Positions 25,481 to 33,183 of a stretch of 56,841 bases of DNA are shown here, piece by piece. The notes below the pieces were generated by a model. It was not told the DNA's origin, ran no database searches, and saw only the letters and a program-made list of their open reading frames with translations. Source of the stretch: an uncultured Treponemataceae bacterium. Its GTDB lineage: Bacteria; Spirochaetota; Spirochaetia; Treponematales; UBA12059. How positions within the stretch are numbered: position 1 is the stretch's first letter; every line of letters starts with the position of its first letter. The DNA is taken from NCBI GenBank assembly GCA_964571545.1, contig CAZNCK010000001.1, forward strand, positions 8,944 to 65,784, written 5' to 3'. Position numbers and translations under genes: made by a program.

Positions 25481-25600
25481 GGGCGCATGGCCCGCCTTCA
25501 GGCGGGCCACCGGGCTCTCCGCTCCAACTCCTCGCCATCTCGCTCCGCTCTGCGAGCGACGCTCATCGGCTCCGGGGTTTCCGCTACGATCCCTTGCGCG
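25481..25600 (-). repeat. Structured repeat family, copy 1 (inverted relative to copies at 51077 and 52466)
   Basis: GGGCGCATGGCCCGCCTTCAGGCGGGCC...CGGGCTCTCCGCTCCAACTCCTCGC...GGGGTTTCCGCTACGATCCCTTGCGCG aligns with the reverse complement of 52466-52551. The hairpin arms differ by compensatory changes. Confidence 0.7.
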
Positions 25601-25752
25601 CAGGAGCGCAGACGCCTGATAGTAGAAGTGGGGATGTCGTGATACACCCGTGTATCCAGTTTGATCTATTCTTGCATGCCATTCTGAAGAAACCTGACCG
25701 GGAGCTAACAACGAAAGCATCATCCCAGAACGACATGCGGAACGGCCTCGTG

Positions 25753-26130
25753 ATGAGCGACGATGCCCTGCTTCTCGTGCGTGACGACGAGCGGATCAGT
25801 GCGGTATACCTGCACGGTAGCCAGGCGCGAGGTGAGGCGCGTTCTGACAGCGATGTTGATCTGGGGATACTTCCGGTTGCCGGTGTGACCTTTACCGATT
25901 ACGAGCGGGCTATGCTCGCGAGCAACCTGGGGCTCCTGCTGCACAAGACCGTGGATGTCGGCGAGGTGTCGTCGAGGAACCTGGTCTATGCCAAAGAGGT
26001 CATATACAAGGGCGTTCCGGTATTCGTCAGGGACGAGGGGTACGCGCGGTTGATGGAGATGACGCTCCTGTCGATGTACGCGTCGTTCAACGAGGACCGT
26101 AAAGAGGTTATAGATGCCTGGACCGCATGA
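25753..26130 (+). CDS. mntA: MNT-type nucleotidyltransferase antitoxin (MntA-like)
   Basis: AVYLHGSQARGEARSDSDVDLGIL is the GSxxxG...DxD minimal NTase motif. Overlaps the downstream DUF86 gene. Alternative ATG at 25735. Confidence 0.8.
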   Translation: MSDDALLLVRDDERISAVYLHGSQARGEARSDSDVDLGILPVAGVTFTDYERAMLASNLGLLLHKTVDVGEVSSRNLVYAKEVIYKGVPVFVRDEGYARLMEMTLLSMYASFNEDRKEVIDAWTA

Positions 26131-26545
26131 CGACATCGGGTACAACAAAGCCGCGATCATAGGCCGGTGCATAGCGCGGATACACGAAGAGTACGACGCG
26201 GATCCGGAGTTGCGGAACGTAACGCATGTCGATGCGCTGACGCTCAACATAGAGCGTGCCTGCCAGGCGGCCATCGATCTGGCATTCCACGTCGTATCAA
26301 GCGACAAGCTCGGCCTGCCGCAGACGAGCGGCGACGCATTCCTGCTCCTTGCCCGATCGAAGCTGATCAAGGAATCCACAGCACGGTCCATGGTCGCGAT
26401 GACCGGATTCAGGAACGTAGCGATACACGAGTATCAGGCGATGGATATGAGCATCCTGAAGGCCGTGGCCCAGACGCACTGGATATCCCTCGTGACGTTC
26501 TGCGAAGAGCTGGGGTTTTCAATAAGGAAAGTGTCGGAAAACTGA
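26114..26545 (+). CDS. hepT: HepT (DUF86, HEPN) RNase toxin
   Basis: C-terminal GFRNVAIHEY is the Rx4HxY HEPN motif of DUF86/HepT. 17-nt overlap with the mntA-like gene. Confidence 0.82.
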   Translation: MPGPHDDIGYNKAAIIGRCIARIHEEYDADPELRNVTHVDALTLNIERACQAAIDLAFHVVSSDKLGLPQTSGDAFLLLARSKLIKESTARSMVAMTGFRNVAIHEYQAMDMSILKAVAQTHWISLVTFCEELGFSIRKVSEN

Positions 26546-26608: not shown

Positions 26609-26959
26609 ATGGTACGAGAAGCTGCACGATTGGCGGACCGCTGGAAAAAAAGCAATAGTGAGGCTGAGAAGAGGCGTGATCGCGCTCAGGATTTTGCCAG
26701 GAAACTGGCAGTACAACTTGGGCTTGCCGACCCCGGCGTCAGAGCCATTCTTGGGTTCGGTTCCACATTTGAGCCATGGCGACAGTACCGGCAAGATTCC
26801 GACATAGATCTGGCCCTGTGCGGTGGCGACTGGGGTTTTCTGTGGTCCTTGATTCCACAGAGCGAATTTTTAGTATCACTGATCGAGCTTGATCTGCAAC
26901 CTGTCGCTTTTGCTGAACAAGTCAAGACGCAAGGGGTACTTCTCTATGAAAAACAGTGA
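26609..26959 (+). CDS. Second MNT-type nucleotidyltransferase
   Basis: ILGFGSTFEPWRQYRQDSDIDLAL is a minimal NTase GS...DxD motif. 116 aa. Confidence 0.7.
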   Translation: MVREAARLADRWKKSNSEAEKRRDRAQDFARKLAVQLGLADPGVRAILGFGSTFEPWRQYRQDSDIDLALCGGDWGFLWSLIPQSEFLVSLIELDLQPVAFAEQVKTQGVLLYEKQ

Positions 26960-27449
26960 CGCGGTACGGCAGTTGCGGGCGGAACTGATGCAGGATTATG
27001 ACTTCATAGTCCTTAATGCGGAAAAGAATGCCATCATGACGAAGCGGATTGCCGTTAGCCAGGACCGGGATGAATTTGCTTATGCCGCGCTCGGGTATAC
27101 GCTGCACAATCTATACAACGCCTTCGAGGGGTATTTTTTCCGCATAGCCAAGTTTTTCGAGAATAATAGTACCGACACTACCTGGCACAAAGCGCTTTTG
27201 GAACGAATGACCCTGAATATAGAGGGCATCAGGCCCGCGTTGCTTGACCACTCCATCAGTCTGCGCATTGAAGAGTTGCTTAAATTCCGGCACGTATACC
27301 GGAATATCTATAAAAGCCCCCTCGTTCCCGCGAAGGTAGATTTTACTAATCTGGCAGCGAACAATCTAGCCGCAGACTTCAACGTCCATCATGAACGGTT
27401 CCTGGGATTCTTGCGTAACCTGATCCAGGAGCTGGATGATAATTCTTGA
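26946..27449 (+). CDS. Putative divergent HEPN-like partner of the second MNT
   Basis: Start MKNSDAV overlaps the upstream stop by 14 nt. All-helical-looking 167 aa with C-terminal IRPALLDH and LLKFRHVYRNIY (R/H-rich HEPN-like region). The assignment is tentative. Confidence 0.4.
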   Translation: MKNSDAVRQLRAELMQDYDFIVLNAEKNAIMTKRIAVSQDRDEFAYAALGYTLHNLYNAFEGYFFRIAKFFENNSTDTTWHKALLERMTLNIEGIRPALLDHSISLRIEELLKFRHVYRNIYKSPLVPAKVDFTNLAANNLAADFNVHHERFLGFLRNLIQELDDNS

Positions 27450-27561
27450 GACCAGGTAGCTTGCAAAGATACTAAAAGCGCAAGATTAATTCCCTTGATT
27501 AACAGTCGACAAACAAAGCTTTACGGAATTTCTACTATGGTACACCCAAGAGGTTACGACT

Positions 27562-28779
27562 ATGCCCTCAATTAAAATTATTGATTTTGGGCCTATAAAG
27601 GCCGGGTACACTCAGTCGGTAGACGGCTTTTTTGATATACCTAGGGTAACGCTGCTTTGCGGTACGCAGGGTTCTGGAAAAAGTTCGGTTGCAAAACTGG
27701 TCTCCGTGTTCAGTTGGCTGGAAAAGGCTCTTTTACGGGGAGACTTTTCGGAGAAAGAACTTAAACAGTATAACCGCTTTGTAAACAAATATTGTTCTTA
27801 TCAGAACATTCAAAACTATTTTTCGGCTTCTACCCGACTTGGGTACAGGGGAAGTGCATACGAGTTCGAGTATAAAGACAAGCGACTCTCGCTCAGGAAA
27901 ATACCGGAAGCCCGATATACACGTCCGAAGATTATGTATATTCCCGCAGAGCGGAATTTCATGAGTGCGGTAGCTGATCCAGAGAAACTGAAAAACCTGC
28001 CCAGCACCCTCTATACCTTGCTCGCAGAGTTTGAGCAGGCTAAACGGAGTCTACAACAAAAAGAAACTAAATTGCCCATCGGAGGGGTATCGTTTGTATA
28101 CGACAAACAAAACAAAATTTCATGGCTTCAGACCAATGACTACAAAATTCGCCTGCAGGAAGCGTCCAGTGGGTTTCAATCAGTTCTTCCCCTGTTTTTA
28201 GTTACCCAATATCTGTCAGACACGATAGGTCAGCCGGACAATCCTTCCCGCAGAACTATAAGCCTTGAAGAATCCCGAAAATTGGCTATTGATCTGGAAA
28301 AAATATTAAAAGATCAGAAACTTGCGCCAGAGGTGAGGGAAACCCTTGTTGCCAGATTGATCGCCGCTTCGGTTAACAGCCGCTTTGTCAACATAGTGGA
28401 AGAGCCAGAACAGAATCTGCATCCAGCCAGCCAGCGATCAATTTTATTTGATTTGTTAACTAACATGAATAAAAACCAGGATAATTCTCTTCTGATGACC
28501 ACGCATAGCCCGTACATGATCAGCTGGCTGACTCTGGCCATTAAAGCTGGCGAACTTGCGGCAACGGTTACCAGACCAGAGGAGTTGGCCCGTATTGTGC
28601 CGCGTGGCGCATGGATATCCTCACAGGAGGTCGCGATCTATCAGCTCTCGGACAAGGGGCAAATCGAGCGCCTGGGCAATTATAAAGGGTTACCCTTGGA
28701 TGAGAACATGCTGAACGCTGAAATCGAAGCCGGAAATGATCTGTTTACGGAGCTTCTTGAGCTGGACGATTCAAAGTGA
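27562..28779 (+). CDS. ABC-type (AAA_15/AAA_21-like) ATPase, candidate defence NTPase
   Basis: Walker A LLCGTQGSGKSS, signature-like QEASSGFQSVLPL, Walker B/D-loop FVNIVEEPEQNLHP, H-loop LMTTHSPYM. No TM segments. Confidence 0.8.
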   Translation: MPSIKIIDFGPIKAGYTQSVDGFFDIPRVTLLCGTQGSGKSSVAKLVSVFSWLEKALLRGDFSEKELKQYNRFVNKYCSYQNIQNYFSASTRLGYRGSAYEFEYKDKRLSLRKIPEARYTRPKIMYIPAERNFMSAVADPEKLKNLPSTLYTLLAEFEQAKRSLQQKETKLPIGGVSFVYDKQNKISWLQTNDYKIRLQEASSGFQSVLPLFLVTQYLSDTIGQPDNPSRRTISLEESRKLAIDLEKILKDQKLAPEVRETLVARLIAASVNSRFVNIVEEPEQNLHPASQRSILFDLLTNMNKNQDNSLLMTTHSPYMISWLTLAIKAGELAATVTRPEELARIVPRGAWISSQEVAIYQLSDKGQIERLGNYKGLPLDENMLNAEIEAGNDLFTELLELDDSK

Positions 28780-29321
28780 TTTCTTTCTTCGACCCGATGT
28801 TCCAGATAGAACAGGCCAGAACAGAAGATGCGTTCGGTATTGTTGACGGAGATGAGCAACACCCCGCGTACACAACGCTTGAAAATAGCGTTGAATGGAC
28901 AGCACAGGTTGAAAACTTGCACAAGGAAGTGGCGCTGTTTATACCGGTAGATAAAAACATGCCACTTCATTCCCCGGACGGTCGTCAATTAAAAACTTGT
29001 GATGGAATGCTGACCCTTCCCAATAAAAAGCAGGACTTGCTGATATTTCTGGAACTCAAAACCGGAAAAACAAGGAATAGAAAAAACTGGATCAATCACG
29101 GTATAGAGCAGTTGGAGAGCACCATTGCTGAATTTCGACGGTACCATGATGACGCTATGCGTGCTGATAAACGAGCGTATGTCTGCAACGGTAAGCGCCC
29201 CATGCAAAGGGAATTTTCGCAGGAACGGGCGCAACGATTTTTTGACAATACCGGCTTTCGATTATATATCGACCATGTCGTACGTATTGTTTCTAGGAAT
29301 GTCCCGAGCCAGATGTCTTGA
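28776..29321 (+). CDS. Small PD-(D/E)xK nuclease-like protein coupled to the ATPase
   Basis: GTG start overlaps the ATPase stop (GTGA). KTCDGMLTLPNKKQDLLIFLELKTGKT is a D...ExK arrangement resembling the RecB-family hhDYKTG strand. Alternative ATG at 28797. Confidence 0.5.
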   Translation: MISFFDPMFQIEQARTEDAFGIVDGDEQHPAYTTLENSVEWTAQVENLHKEVALFIPVDKNMPLHSPDGRQLKTCDGMLTLPNKKQDLLIFLELKTGKTRNRKNWINHGIEQLESTIAEFRRYHDDAMRADKRAYVCNGKRPMQREFSQERAQRFFDNTGFRLYIDHVVRIVSRNVPSQMS

Positions 29322-29428: not shown

Positions 29429-29570
29429 TAGAAAACAAGTCTAGATTGAACCTGGTGGTAGGATAGTCTGAAGAGAGGCGCCCTACCGTTGCGGGGAAGG
29501 GCGCCCGGTAGATTTTTAGATCGTTACGCTACGGAGACTGGGTCGGAGAGCATGGCTTCCTTGATGTCCT
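29408..29570 (+). repeat. 163-nt direct repeat A (left copy), including an orphan copy of the last 47 nt of the 30793-31464 gene
   Basis: Near-identical to 30677-30839, with a handful of substitutions. Contains hairpin GGCGCCC-N15-GGGCGCC. Confidence 0.9.
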
Positions 29571-29690: not shown

Positions 29691-29825
29691 ATAAAAAGTA
29701 TAAAGAAATTGTGGAGTACGACTGCAGAGCGCCTGTCCTGCTTTCTGTGGGACTTTGGGAGATCACTACGTTCGCTTGCGCTAGGGTGTTGTTGTTAGAA
29801 CGTTGTGTCAGGGAGGAAGCCGTCC

Positions 29826-30026
29826 ATGTTAGTTTCATACTTTGGAACATACGATGATGGGGTTATAAAGCTTTCTGAGAAGCCGGAGGGGATCAGCCAT
29901 GCCCGGGTAATCATCACGCTTATACCTGATGAAGAAGGGAATGAGAACCAGGCCACTATGAAGCTAGCTGAAGCCGTCTTTGACGAATGGGATAACGACG
30001 TGGATTCTGTCTATGATACCTTATAA
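29826..30026 (+). CDS. Antitoxin (DUF104/AF2212-like) of the MazF-type toxin
   Basis: RBS GGGAGGAAG. MLVSYFGTYDDGVIKLSEKPEGISHARVIITLI fits the Y.nGvlkP.e...l.eg..v.i pattern. Overlaps the toxin start. Confidence 0.6.
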   Translation: MLVSYFGTYDDGVIKLSEKPEGISHARVIITLIPDEEGNENQATMKLAEAVFDEWDNDVDSVYDTL

Positions 30027-30354
30027 GCCTTGGGATGTGATTCTTGTTCCATTCCCTTTCACTGACCTGAGTTTGAACAAGCAGCGACCAGCAGTTGTCA
30101 TTTCGTGTAATGATTACAATAAATCTGGCGATCTAATCATAGGATTTCTGACTAGCAACCTACATGGAACTTTGAAATTGGGTGACTATAGGCTTGTTGG
30201 GTACCACCAGGCTGGTCTTCCACTTCCAACAAGGTTCAGGGCTAAGTTTGCAACAATAACAAAAGAGATAGTTGTTCGAAAACTTGGATCCTTGGTAGCA
30301 GTAGATCGGACAGCAGTTTCGGATAGCATTCGCGATGTTTTAGCTATGGTTTGA
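30013..30354 (+). CDS. MazF/PemK-family toxin
   Basis: YKPWDVILVPFPFTDLSLNKQRPAVVIS...FLTSN is the typical PemK/MazF N-terminus. 113 aa. Confidence 0.75.
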   Translation: MIPYKPWDVILVPFPFTDLSLNKQRPAVVISCNDYNKSGDLIIGFLTSNLHGTLKLGDYRLVGYHQAGLPLPTRFRAKFATITKEIVVRKLGSLVAVDRTAVSDSIRDVLAMV

Positions 30355-30697: not shown

Positions 30698-30839
30698 CCT
30701 AAAACAAGTCTAGATTGAACCTGGTGGTAGGATAGTCTGAAGAGAGGCGCCCGACCGTTGCGGGGAAGGGCGCTCGGTAGATTTTTAGATCGTTACGCTA
30801 CGGAGACTGGGTCGGAGAGCATGGCTTCCTTGATGTCCT
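30677..30839 (+). repeat. 163-nt direct repeat A (right copy): 3' end of the 30793-31464 gene plus its downstream region
   Basis: See 29408-29570. Confidence 0.9.
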
Positions 30840-31464
30840 TCTCGTTTGGCGACGTGCGGACTATCAGGGAGTATTGGCCAGCCCCCAGGTCCGGGGGGAC
30901 CTGGGCAATGACGGTGCCGGGGGTGACGGATGCGTACTGGACGGCGCGGTGTTCCGAGCCGTTCTTGAACCAGACGCCGGTCTCGGGCTGGGTTTTGTTA
31001 AACTTCATGTTGCGTCCATGGATGCGGATGAAGTCTCCCGGTGAGGCGGTGAGTTCCTCGTCGGTGCGGACCGAGTGAGCCGTGTAGAGGCACGGGGCGG
31101 TCTTGTCGATCTGGAATTCGCGCTGGATAAGCGTCTCGTTGACGATTCTGGCTTCTTCTGCCTTGTTTGCCCTGAAATGGAGGCTGACCTTGTGGCCCGT
31201 TTCCTTGGTAGCCGGGTCAAAGGCTTGCCCGGCATAGTCAAACGTACCGGAAGCGCTCAGGTAGAGGGAGAAAAAGGGCAGCTTGATTACGGTGCCGCGG
31301 GACAGTTCACGGGACATCACCTTGAAGAAGGCATTGAGCGCCGCGAGGCAGTCTGCCTCGGAAAGCCCCGTGCCGCCCTCGGTCATGTCCTTGACCAGGT
31401 CTTGCGCATCCCTGGTTTCATCATGGATGGTATGCACGATGAAATGTTTTTTCACCGTTGGCAA
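30793..31464 (-). CDS. HU-like DNA-binding domain protein with C-terminal Ig-like (DUF4469-like) domain
   Basis: N-terminus ...LSEADCLAALNAFFKVMSRELSRGTVIKLPFFSLYLSASGTF is HU/IHF-like. C-terminus PGDFIRIHGRNMKFN...ETGVWF...GQYSLIV resembles DUF4469. Assigned by recall of the family pattern. Confidence 0.5.
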   Translation of the reverse strand: MPTVKKHFIVHTIHDETRDAQDLVKDMTEGGTGLSEADCLAALNAFFKVMSRELSRGTVIKLPFFSLYLSASGTFDYAGQAFDPATKETGHKVSLHFRANKAEEARIVNETLIQREFQIDKTAPCLYTAHSVRTDEELTASPGDFIRIHGRNMKFNKTQPETGVWFKNGSEHRAVQYASVTPGTVIAQVPPDLGAGQYSLIVRTSPNEKDIKEAMLSDPVSVA

Positions 31465-31867: not shown

Positions 31868-33183
31868 TAACAGGATGTCGAAAATGCCTTGTTTTTGGTC
31901 AATGGCTCTGCGTTGGCAATTTTATGATTGCCTTTCAGTAAATATTGTGTAATTTGCCGCAGGGAGGCATTCCTGCATGCGACTGTTAAGATCTTAGCGC
32001 CCATCGGAGCGCTGGAGAATGTCACTGGCATCATGCTTCCGCCTCCATGTTCCGCAGGCGGACTGGGTTGAAGACAGCGAGGCTCATCGGGAAAAGCCAG
32101 TCTATATTTGCTCGCCCTTGTAGCTTGGCTTTTCGTATCAGCCCGACAGTCTTGGCCCACCCAAATATCTCTTCGACAAGATTTCTTTTCCGTTGGCTTG
32201 TCTCGTAGCCTTCGTGTCTTGTTGTCCGGCCGTCTACTGATTTCCCGTTTCTCCTCTGAGAAATAGGTGGTGTGGTTTTCAAGTCGCGCAGGTTTTCAGC
32301 AAACTCACTGGCATCGTAGCTTTTGTCCGCTCCCAGCGTCCGTTTCTTGTTGCCATTCAACCGCAGCGCCATACTGTGTGCAGCATCGCGCTCTGCCGTT
32401 CCGCTTGCCAACGTTACTTCGACATCAACAGCAAGTCCGTTTCGGTTCTCCATGAGCACATGGCCCAGATAGGCGAGTTTTGCCTGAGATCCGCTCGACT
32501 TCTTGTAGAGCCAGGCGTCCTTGTCTGACCGCGACTCATGAGTCGCATTGGATCGTTTCTCTCCATGGAAATCGACTTCGGGATTCCTGCCGCCCGCCTC
32601 CGGAATCTTTTCCAGTAGGATCGATTGTATCCTTCTCCTGAAGCTTTTCATGCTTGCCCAAGCTTCTATACGAGTACCATCTACGGTGAAATGCTCGTCA
32701 GAGAGGAACTTCTTTCGCCGAGTCCCCTCAACTACTTTGATAAAAAACAGTCGCGTGATGCTGGAACCAAGCAAACGGTCACGGTTTTTAATGAATTTTT
32801 AATGTTCCCAGAGGGGCGCATCAATGCTCAACCCGACAAACCACCGGGACAGGATGTTGAAGTCTATCTGTTCCATCAGCTGGCGCTCGCTCCTGACCGA
32901 ACAGAGGATCTGTAGGACCGACGCGCGTAAGAGGCACTCTGGCGCGATCGAAGGACGACCGGAGATTGAGTATATCGAATCGAATTCGGTATCAAGGCTC
33001 TTTAGTATCTCGTCGACCATGATCCGAATTGGCCTGCTTGTGTGTCGGGCTGGAATCCGATCCTTCACATGCTGATGTAACCGAAGGCGTCGATCTGCTT
33101 CTCTTCGATACCGCGCATACGGTCCCCCCGGGGGGATCAGTATGATATAAATTTGTCACTTAACGAATTTCAACAGCCTGTTA
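31868..33183 (-). mobile_element. IS5-family insertion sequence (~1.3 kb)
   Basis: Terminal inverted repeats TAACAGGATGTCGAAAAT (31868-31885) versus the reverse complement of AATTTCAACAGCCTGTTA (33166-33183), 15/18 matching. Encloses a DDE transposase reading frame. Confidence 0.65.
32031..33068 (-). pseudogene. IS5-family (DUF772 + DDE) transposase interrupted by one in-frame TAA
   Basis: ORFs 32799-33068 (...LSRWFVGLSIDAPLWEH*) and 32031-32795 (KFIKNRDRLLGSS...) are in the same frame, separated only by a TAA at 32796-32798. Together ~345 codons. Confidence 0.75.

Follow-up and report, generated by a model that had tools for sequence, protein, structure and literature searches.

We analysed a stretch of 56,841 nucleotides of the contig CAZNCK010000001.1 from an uncultured Treponemataceae bacterium (the whole stretch is further referred to as the window) and studied in it a pair of adjacent genes, which we call A and B. 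Gene A encodes a soluble ATPase of the ATP-binding cassette (ABC) type, and gene B encodes a small protein that is probably a divergent nuclease of the PD-(D/E)xK type. Judged by profile matches, the pair is an intact, ordinary member of PDC-M29, a candidate system of PADLOC-DB v2. The three features of this system are all found in the window, namely, a full-length match of A, a full-length match of B, and the adjacency of A and B, in this order, on the same strand. Protein A matches the PDC-M29A model (PDLC04562) with E = 2.1e-151 and 502.8 bits, its residues 1–403 being aligned to positions 1–408 of the 410 positions of the model. Protein B matches the PDC-M29B model (PDLC04563) with E = 1.4e-40, residues 2–171 being aligned to positions 3–163 of 164, and the second PDC-M29B model (PDLC04564) with E = 9.8e-21. 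A preliminary description of this DNA had proposed the pair as a new two-gene defence system. The two open reading frames (ORFs), of 405 and 181 aa, and their GTGA overlap are located exactly as claimed there (Table 1). The claim of novelty, tied beforehand to the pair matching no named system, fails, since both proteins match PDC-M29 over the full length. The functional reading given there is reasonable. Hence the finding stands but lacks novelty: the system is catalogued, and its architecture has a validated precedent.

PDC-M29 is one of the 145 candidates for phage defence listed as untested by Payne et al. (bioRxiv 10.1101/2024.01.29.577857). The candidates were predicted using guilt-by-embedding, that is, from genes recurring inside known defence systems (Payne et al.). 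PDC-M29 is given there as cassette CAS_00123 with the composition FAM_00005>>FAM_02872 and a count of 110, and FAM_00005 is described as an ATPase family common to HEC-01. No annotation of the B family was found in the accessible part of the supplement.

Protein A contains all four ATPase motifs named in the preliminary description (Table 1). In the alignment of 118 homologs their key residues are invariant: G34, Q36, G37, G39, K40 and S41 in Walker A, S203 and G204 in the signature-like motif, E280, E281 and E283 in the Walker B/D-loop segment, and T313, T314, H315 and S316 in the H-loop; Q206 is near-invariant. The earlier assignment of A to ATPases of the AAA_15/AAA_21 type lacking a transporter domain agrees with Pfam. 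Both AAA_15 (41.5 bits, gathering cut-off 32.1) and AAA_21 (40.9 bits, cut-off 27) score above their cut-offs; they are the sole families detected, and Pfam finds no transporter domain in A.

The AlphaFold2 (AF2) model of A has a predicted local distance difference test score (pLDDT) of 90.8. A Foldseek search with this model yielded 132 PDB matches at E ≤ 0.001, with PtuA on top, and A has the ABC ATPase fold. The nearest solved folds are PtuA of Septu (8eea, 8sux, 8ee4), followed by PtuA of the retrons Ec78, Ec83 and Eco7. The E-values of the matches to PtuA structures range from 5.7e-10 to 1e-7 at the probability of 1.0, with a TM-score of just 0.35–0.45 and an identity of about 12%.

Profiles of named defence ATPases match A only in part. 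Partial PADLOC matches were obtained for NsnB (3.7e-15, residues 24–337), AriA (6.7e-14), GajA (3.4e-12) and PD-T4-4_A (2e-10), and the PADLOC PtuA models match partial stretches of A with E from about 1e-12 to 1e-6. With the exception of NsnB and GajA, these matches are confined to the segment between Walker B and the H-loop (approximately residues 270–325). The sole PtuA model of NCBIfam that matches A, NF041760 (equivalog of PtuA from retron Ec78), scores 31.6 bits at a cut-off of 500. Sequence scores against families of the SMC/RecF type are negligible. Given that the PADLOC and NCBIfam scores are partial or below the cut-off, A is, as far as its sequence tells, a family of its own within the broad superfamily of PtuA (Septu), GajA, AriA and NsnB, and belongs to none of these named families. 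A protein identical to A is present in the databases as ‘hypothetical protein A2Z96_07940’ from Spirochaetes bacterium GWB1_48_6. The best match of A among the PDB sequences is a 551-aa ‘AAA family ATPase’ (22bu_B; entries 22bu and 22bv) with E = 0.0011; it spans Walker A and the Walker B/H-loop segments.

At 90% identity the B family falls into 1019 clusters, and at 50% identity into 852. Among the matches listed, all members are stand-alone proteins of about 160–180 aa, and the few named ones are called hypothetical. Protein B of the window itself has no matches in Pfam (0 families at E ≤ 5), NCBIfam or PHROG. The stretch CDGMLTLPNKKQDLLIFLELKTGK quoted in the preliminary description is found in B, and the spacing D-x16-E-L-K reported there is correct; the aspartate was numbered D79, and it is in fact residue 76 counting from the GTG start. 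All 117 members carry D24, N47, D59, C75, D76, E93, L94, Q112 and N138 as invariant residues, and all but one (116/117) also have K95. Such conservation of D76, E93, L94 and K95 puts the D...ELK motif far beyond a chance match. D76, E93 and K95, with the x16 spacing, are conserved residues of the catalytic D...(D/E)xK type, accompanied by the invariant D59, Q112 and N138.

One public gene call uses an alternative, 174-aa version of B with an ATG start. The 181-aa version with the GTG start is preferred, since F4 is near-invariant in the homolog alignment. B of the window is part of a small clade of divergent 174–181-aa proteins, about 35% identical to the main PDC-M29B family. Five cysteines (positions 9, 23, 61, 75 and 137 of B) are conserved in 104/117 members. 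In B of the window and its two closest relatives, C9, C23 and C61 are lost together (replaced by F/Y, V/N and N, respectively), with C75 and C137 retained, and N61 in the family is always paired with a residue other than cysteine at position 9 (5/5). Such a pattern is suggestive of a structural site, metal or disulfide, that was given up in the clade of the window.

The AF2 model of B has the pLDDT of 91.4 and the predicted TM-score (pTM) of 0.89. It contains strands at residues 19–23, 32–34, 43–47, 53–57, 77–80, 88–95, 131–138, 162–165 and 168–171, and helices at residues 102–123 and 149–159. As follows from the positions of the strands 77–80 and 88–95, D76 and E93/K95 are located at the two ends of one β-hairpin, which D76 opens and E93-x-K95 closes; the hairpin is followed by the helix 102–123 and by the fourth strand, 131–138. 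Judging from the order of secondary structure elements, this predicted succession of hairpin, helix and strand would correspond to the core arrangement of the PD-(D/E)xK metal-dependent nucleases.

The best PDB matches of the B model in Foldseek are FokI and N.BspD6I, with E of 0.5–0.8 and the TM-score of 0.35. Among the best 50 PDB hits these two have the highest probabilities (0.38–0.54) and the lowest root-mean-square deviation (3.8–4.8 Å over 93–107 columns). PD-(D/E)xK-type nucleases account for 14 of the best 50 hits, and the nuclease matches include FokI, N.BspD6I, EcoT38I, HindIII, BstEII, Mus81-Eme1 and FAN1. In BFVD, VRR-NUC and PD-(D/E)XK proteins come up repeatedly among the hits. 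Pfam searches with 117 members of the B family produced sub-threshold matches to NERD in 15 members (best E = 0.0045), PDDEXK_9 in six, SduA_C in four, and HSDR_N in two; all four families belong to the PD-(D/E)xK clan. Further, comparison by eye of ‘PDGAI...VIVDTK’ from FokI with ‘CDGML...IFLELK’ from B gives an equal spacing of 17 residues between D and (D/E), which is treated as a lead only. Since no hit reached E ≤ 0.001, the assignment rests on the motifs, the predicted topology and the convergence of sub-threshold hits. Taken together, they indicate that B is probably a divergent nuclease of the PD-(D/E)xK type, the N-terminal extension of which is β-rich and non-canonical. The earlier view of B as PD-(D/E)xK-like is thereby retained as far as the invariant residues and the predicted topology are concerned; significant structure or profile matches did not emerge.

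To collect loci, 185,579 species-representative genomes were scanned with B-based patterns built from an alignment of five sequences. The scan is limited by its patterns, and the resulting number of 25 loci is therefore a lower bound. The loci come from Bacteroidota, Spirochaetota, Cyanobacteriota, Burkholderiales, Thioploca and Oscillospiraceae (Bacillota). In 23/25 loci, B is immediately preceded on the same strand by a homolog of A, in line with the genomic linkage of homolog pairs expected in the preliminary description; of the two exceptions, one locus (L023) ends at a contig edge and the other (L018) is a truncated orphan remnant of B. The genes overlap by 4–10 nt in 17 loci and by 1 nt in one locus, and in one locus they are separated by a 1-nt gap. 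The linkage is also seen when starting from A: in Tenacibaculum discolor and Sphingobacterium oryzagri an overlapping B homolog is found downstream. A and B diverge together, as their identities to the proteins of the window co-vary (Spearman 0.61, p = 0.0025, n = 22). The two genes form a conserved, co-inherited, translationally coupled module.

In several loci the module is degraded. B is truncated in L009 (8446–8781) and L014 (6234–6530), both genes are truncated in L010 (141–1382), B of L017 (10001–10405) lacks an intact ORF of 90 aa or more, and L018 (10010–10354) contains an orphan B fragment and no A. These copies point to frequent decay of the PDC-M29 cassette.

Comparison with known systems was performed for both proteins. 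HEC-02 consists of an ABC ATPase and a separate NERD (PD-(D/E)xK) protein, and its role in phage defence was shown experimentally (bioRxiv 10.1101/2024.01.29.577857). The preliminary description considered a stand-alone PD-(D/E)xK-like effector to be a different architecture from those known; HEC-02 is a validated precedent for it. Like HEC-02, PDC-M29 combines a soluble ABC ATPase with a separate small protein that probably belongs to the PD-(D/E)xK superfamily, and NERD is the commonest weak Pfam match in the B family (15/117, all below the threshold). Membership in HEC-02 was nevertheless rejected, as B of the window matches neither HEC-02B at E ≤ 1 nor Pfam NERD at E ≤ 5. HEC-02A is not among the best 25 of the 107 PADLOC hits of A. 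Given the results for HEC-02B and HEC-02A, the families of PDC-M29 and HEC-02 are different.

Septu PtuA-PtuB and the retron PtuAB proteins (Ec78, Ec83, Eco7), which provide the closest solved structures to A, are also two-gene combinations of an ATPase and a small nuclease effector. Oligomers of PtuA serve as a scaffold for PtuB, and the nuclease is under the control of the nucleotide state. Unlike the Septu protein, B has no HNH or PtuB match in Pfam, NCBIfam or PADLOC, and the score of A is far below the PtuA cut-off (31.6 vs 500 bits). Septu membership was rejected because of this threshold, the partner that is not HNH, and the TM-score of 0.42–0.45. Gabija (GajA), PARIS (AriA/AriB), OLD, PD-T4-4 and Menshen (NsnB) share the ABC ATPase motifs with A. 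Membership in Gabija, PARIS or OLD was rejected, as neither A nor B matches Toprim or DUF4435 in Pfam, PADLOC or NCBIfam. PDC-M47 is another untested PADLOC candidate: A matches PDC-M47A with E = 1.4e-07, and B matches PDC-M47B with E = 0.011 over residues 36–120, which span the putative catalytic core of B. Both scores are marginal, and PDC-M47 may be a sister pair of an ATPase and a PD-(D/E)xK-like protein.

With Septu PtuAB and HEC-02 taken as analogues, the pair is rather likely to be an anti-phage operon, PDC-M29, in which an infection-sensing ATPase would gate a PD-(D/E)xK-type nuclease effector. From these analogues we infer the physical interaction of A and B, the nuclease activity of B and its substrate, the trigger, and the anti-phage function. 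A would oligomerise and form a complex with B, and the nucleotide state of the ATPase oligomer would keep B inactive until infection is sensed. The trigger might be a phage protein, a DNA end or another DNA structure, or a fall in ATP. Released or activated B would then cut DNA using a metal site formed by D76, E93 and K95. As an outcome, either the invader would be destroyed, or the infected cell would be killed or arrested (abortive infection). We are doubtful about a more far-reaching form of this model, in which PDC-M29 is a genuine anti-phage system, its effector B is a small nuclease of distinct structure, and a compact ATPase similar to PtuA gates B through a trigger that Septu, Gabija and PARIS are not known to use. 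B would in that case be a minimal PD-(D/E)xK-like hairpin grafted on a new β-rich N-terminal module, with no close relative in PDB or BFVD; the module would carry the cysteine cluster C9/C23/C61 in most members and would have lost it in the clade of the window.

A number of observations weigh against an anti-phage operon with a nuclease effector. The candidates of this series are called untested by their own authors (bioRxiv 10.1101/2024.01.29.577857), and a literature search, full texts included, revealed no published test, mention in the text or renaming of PDC-M29. Some other candidates failed when tested (PDC-M63 and PDC-S04), as did 4/8 candidates in another test set. Many instances of the pair are single among housekeeping genes (including SufBD and citrate synthase), outside defence islands, and in two cultured isolates, T. 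discolor and S. oryzagri, the pair is a lone insertion. B was found on one plasmid only (Persicobacter) and in no phage record. Four further results concern the nuclease itself. First, in place of the N-terminal helix that is canonical for the PD-(D/E)xK core, the B model has a β-rich extension. Second, Foldseek searches of PDB and BFVD with this model returned nothing at E ≤ 0.001, the best values being 0.5 and 0.011, respectively. Third, the B-family profile compared with all PDB sequences gave nothing relevant (a spurious amidohydrolase at E = 0.33). Fourth, hhalign comparison of the B family with the cleavage domain of FokI was negative (probability 0.2, 9 irrelevant columns).

The same four results, along with the lack of matches of B of the window in Pfam, NCBIfam and PHROG and the five cysteines conserved in most members, would fit B not being a nuclease. 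It might be an enzyme of another kind or might serve the ATPase as an adaptor or sensor, and its conserved polar residues would serve other chemistry or bind a ligand; action on nucleotides or RNA and metal binding via the conserved cysteines are examples, and the output would then be other than DNA cleavage. We consider this unlikely, given that the invariant D...ExK residues lie on a predicted β-hairpin, after which come a helix and a strand, as in the PD-(D/E)xK signature, and that sub-threshold hits obtained by two independent methods converge on PD-(D/E)xK families instead of being scattered. Moreover, related ATPases have nucleases as partners: HNH in the PtuAB structures, and NERD, PIN and TOPRIM according to Payne et al. 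(bioRxiv 10.1101/2024.01.29.577857).

The genomic distribution bears on the role of the pair. In L003 the pair is located within a type I restriction-modification (RM) operon with the gene order hsdM-hsdS-x-A-B-hsdR, and the gene order in L013 is A-B-hsdR. In a few other loci, defence genes occur within three genes of the pair on either side; they include a Pycsar cyclase, MADS and PDC-S01 genes. Overall, the pair behaves like a mobile cassette of small size that is to some extent associated with defence. Another explanation, which we find distinctly improbable, is a selfish addiction module similar to toxin–antitoxin (TA) systems. Here the toxic nuclease would be B, held in check by A in an ATP-dependent manner; the module would contribute little or nothing to phage defence and would persist due to post-segregational killing or by stabilising a mobile islet. 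This would fit the position of the window pair within a cluster of TA modules beside a broken insertion sequence (IS) element, the lone two-gene insertions among housekeeping genes in cultured isolates, the degraded or orphan copies in L009, L010, L014 and L018, and the single plasmid-borne copy. It agrees less well with the repeated finding of the pair within or next to defence genes (type I RM and others), which was the basis of its cataloguing, and with the fact that A is closest to defence ATPases. The addiction module and the anti-phage operon overlap as explanations, since TA-like behaviour and abortive-infection defence can coexist.

Least of all do we believe in a housekeeping or mobile-element pair for DNA processing (repair, recombination or replication, similar to SbcCD or RecN) outside any conflict system: ABC/SMC-type ATPases with nuclease partners also work in DNA repair, and some copies lie among core metabolic genes, but the spread of the pair is sparse and patchy (at least 25 loci among the 185,579 genomes), no conserved synteny with repair genes is observed across the neighbours of the loci, the window copy is situated in DNA of low GC content along with an IS element, and the scores against SMC/RecF-type families are negligible.

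Table 1. Features of the PDC-M29 pair and its surroundings (nucleotide positions in the window; residue numbers where indicated)
Feature	Position	Strand	Remarks
First MNT-HepT pair, upstream	Polbeta/NTP_transf_2 25594–26130; HepT-like 26114–26545	+	Genes overlap
Second MNT-HepT pair, upstream	Weak Polbeta 26609–26959; HepT-like_2 26889–27449	+	Genes overlap
Promoter-like match	27446–27473		Sigma-70 scan; single site at the leader
Intergenic leader before A	27450–27561	+	112 nt; AAGAGG, Shine-Dalgarno-like, about 8 nt 5’ of ATG
Gene A, soluble ABC-type ATPase, PADLOC PDC-M29A	27562–28779	+	ATG start; 405 aa; ORF intact
A, Walker A	Residues 34–42		GTQGSGKSS
A, signature-like motif	Residues 201–207		ASSGFQS (SSGFQS at 202–207)
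A, Walker B/D-loop	Residues 278–288		IVEEPEQNLHP
A, H-loop	Residues 313–317		TTHSP
Overlap of B start and A stop (TGA)	28776–28779	+	GTGA in the sequence; translational coupling
Gene B, small protein, PADLOC PDC-M29B, probable divergent PD-(D/E)xK-type nuclease	28776–29321	+	GTG start; 181 aa
Possible terminator	29477–29519	+	G+C-rich hairpin 29477–29505; AUUUUU 6 nt on
PemK/MazF-like toxin ORF, downstream	29980–30354	+	Pfam E = 6.8e-08
HU-like gene	30793–31464	-	223 aa; HU-DNA_bdg/HU-HIG + DUF4469 (Ig-like)
Split IS5-type transposase	DDE_Tnp_1 32031–32774; DUF772 32799–33068	-	

The signals flanking the pair in the window are as follows. The promoter-like site at the leader is weak evidence, since the number of sigma-70 sites in the region is no higher than in shuffled sequence. 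The hairpin downstream of B folds with the energy of -28.8 kcal/mol (z = -2.05), and 3/200 shuffles equal it. A simple terminator scan did not call this hairpin because its loop is too large, and as an operon terminator it is suggestive only.

The pair belongs to an islet of about 7.5 kb (25.5–33.2 kb), which splits a surface-polysaccharide locus and contains the TA pairs, PDC-M29, the PemK gene, the HU-like gene and the split IS5-type transposase. The upstream flank of the islet consists of genes for a dTDP-sugar isomerase, an RmlD-like protein, ManC and an RfbA-like protein, and the downstream flank, of genes for two DegT aminotransferases and a Polysacc_synt_3 flippase. Near 27 kb the GC content drops from approximately 0.55–0.61 to approximately 0.46. 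The low GC content is not specific to the pair, as it runs on through the downstream polysaccharide genes. Hence, of the setting among TA modules in AT-rich DNA that had been described for the pair, the modules (MNT-HepT and PemK) and the GC content of about 0.46 are confirmed, and the latter characterises a longer stretch of DNA.

The two MNT-HepT pairs, located in tandem directly upstream of A, are nucleotidyltransferase/HEPN RNase pairs resembling type VII TA systems. The first MNT protein (25594–26130) matches PADLOC PDC-S09 models with E of about 1e-8. A 73-aa ORF that overlaps the PemK toxin gene upstream (module 29805–30354) has no family match and may be an antitoxin. Gene calls for the PemK toxin on the same DNA differ, the gene being called in two public assemblies and not in two others. 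The combination of HU-HIG and DUF4469 in the HU-like protein is typical of Bacteroidota. Bacteroidota also account for most of the PDC-M29 homologs found, and this phylum may therefore be the origin of the islet in the spirochaete metagenome-assembled genome.

The discovery value of the pair is small, as a PADLOC run on the contig would label it PDC-M29, and combining an ABC ATPase with a separate nuclease effector is a well-established design (Septu, validated HEC-02). The present analysis adds a catalytic hypothesis for the ‘hypothetical’ B subunit, involving D59, D76, E93, K95, Q112 and N138, along with the strict linkage, translational coupling and co-divergence of A and B and the recognition of PtuA as the closest structural analogue of A. 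Cultured or isolate sources of the pair are S. oryzagri, T. discolor and Belliella calami DSM 107340. Should PDC-M29 be validated, it would represent one more effector type in the defence superfamily of ABC ATPases.

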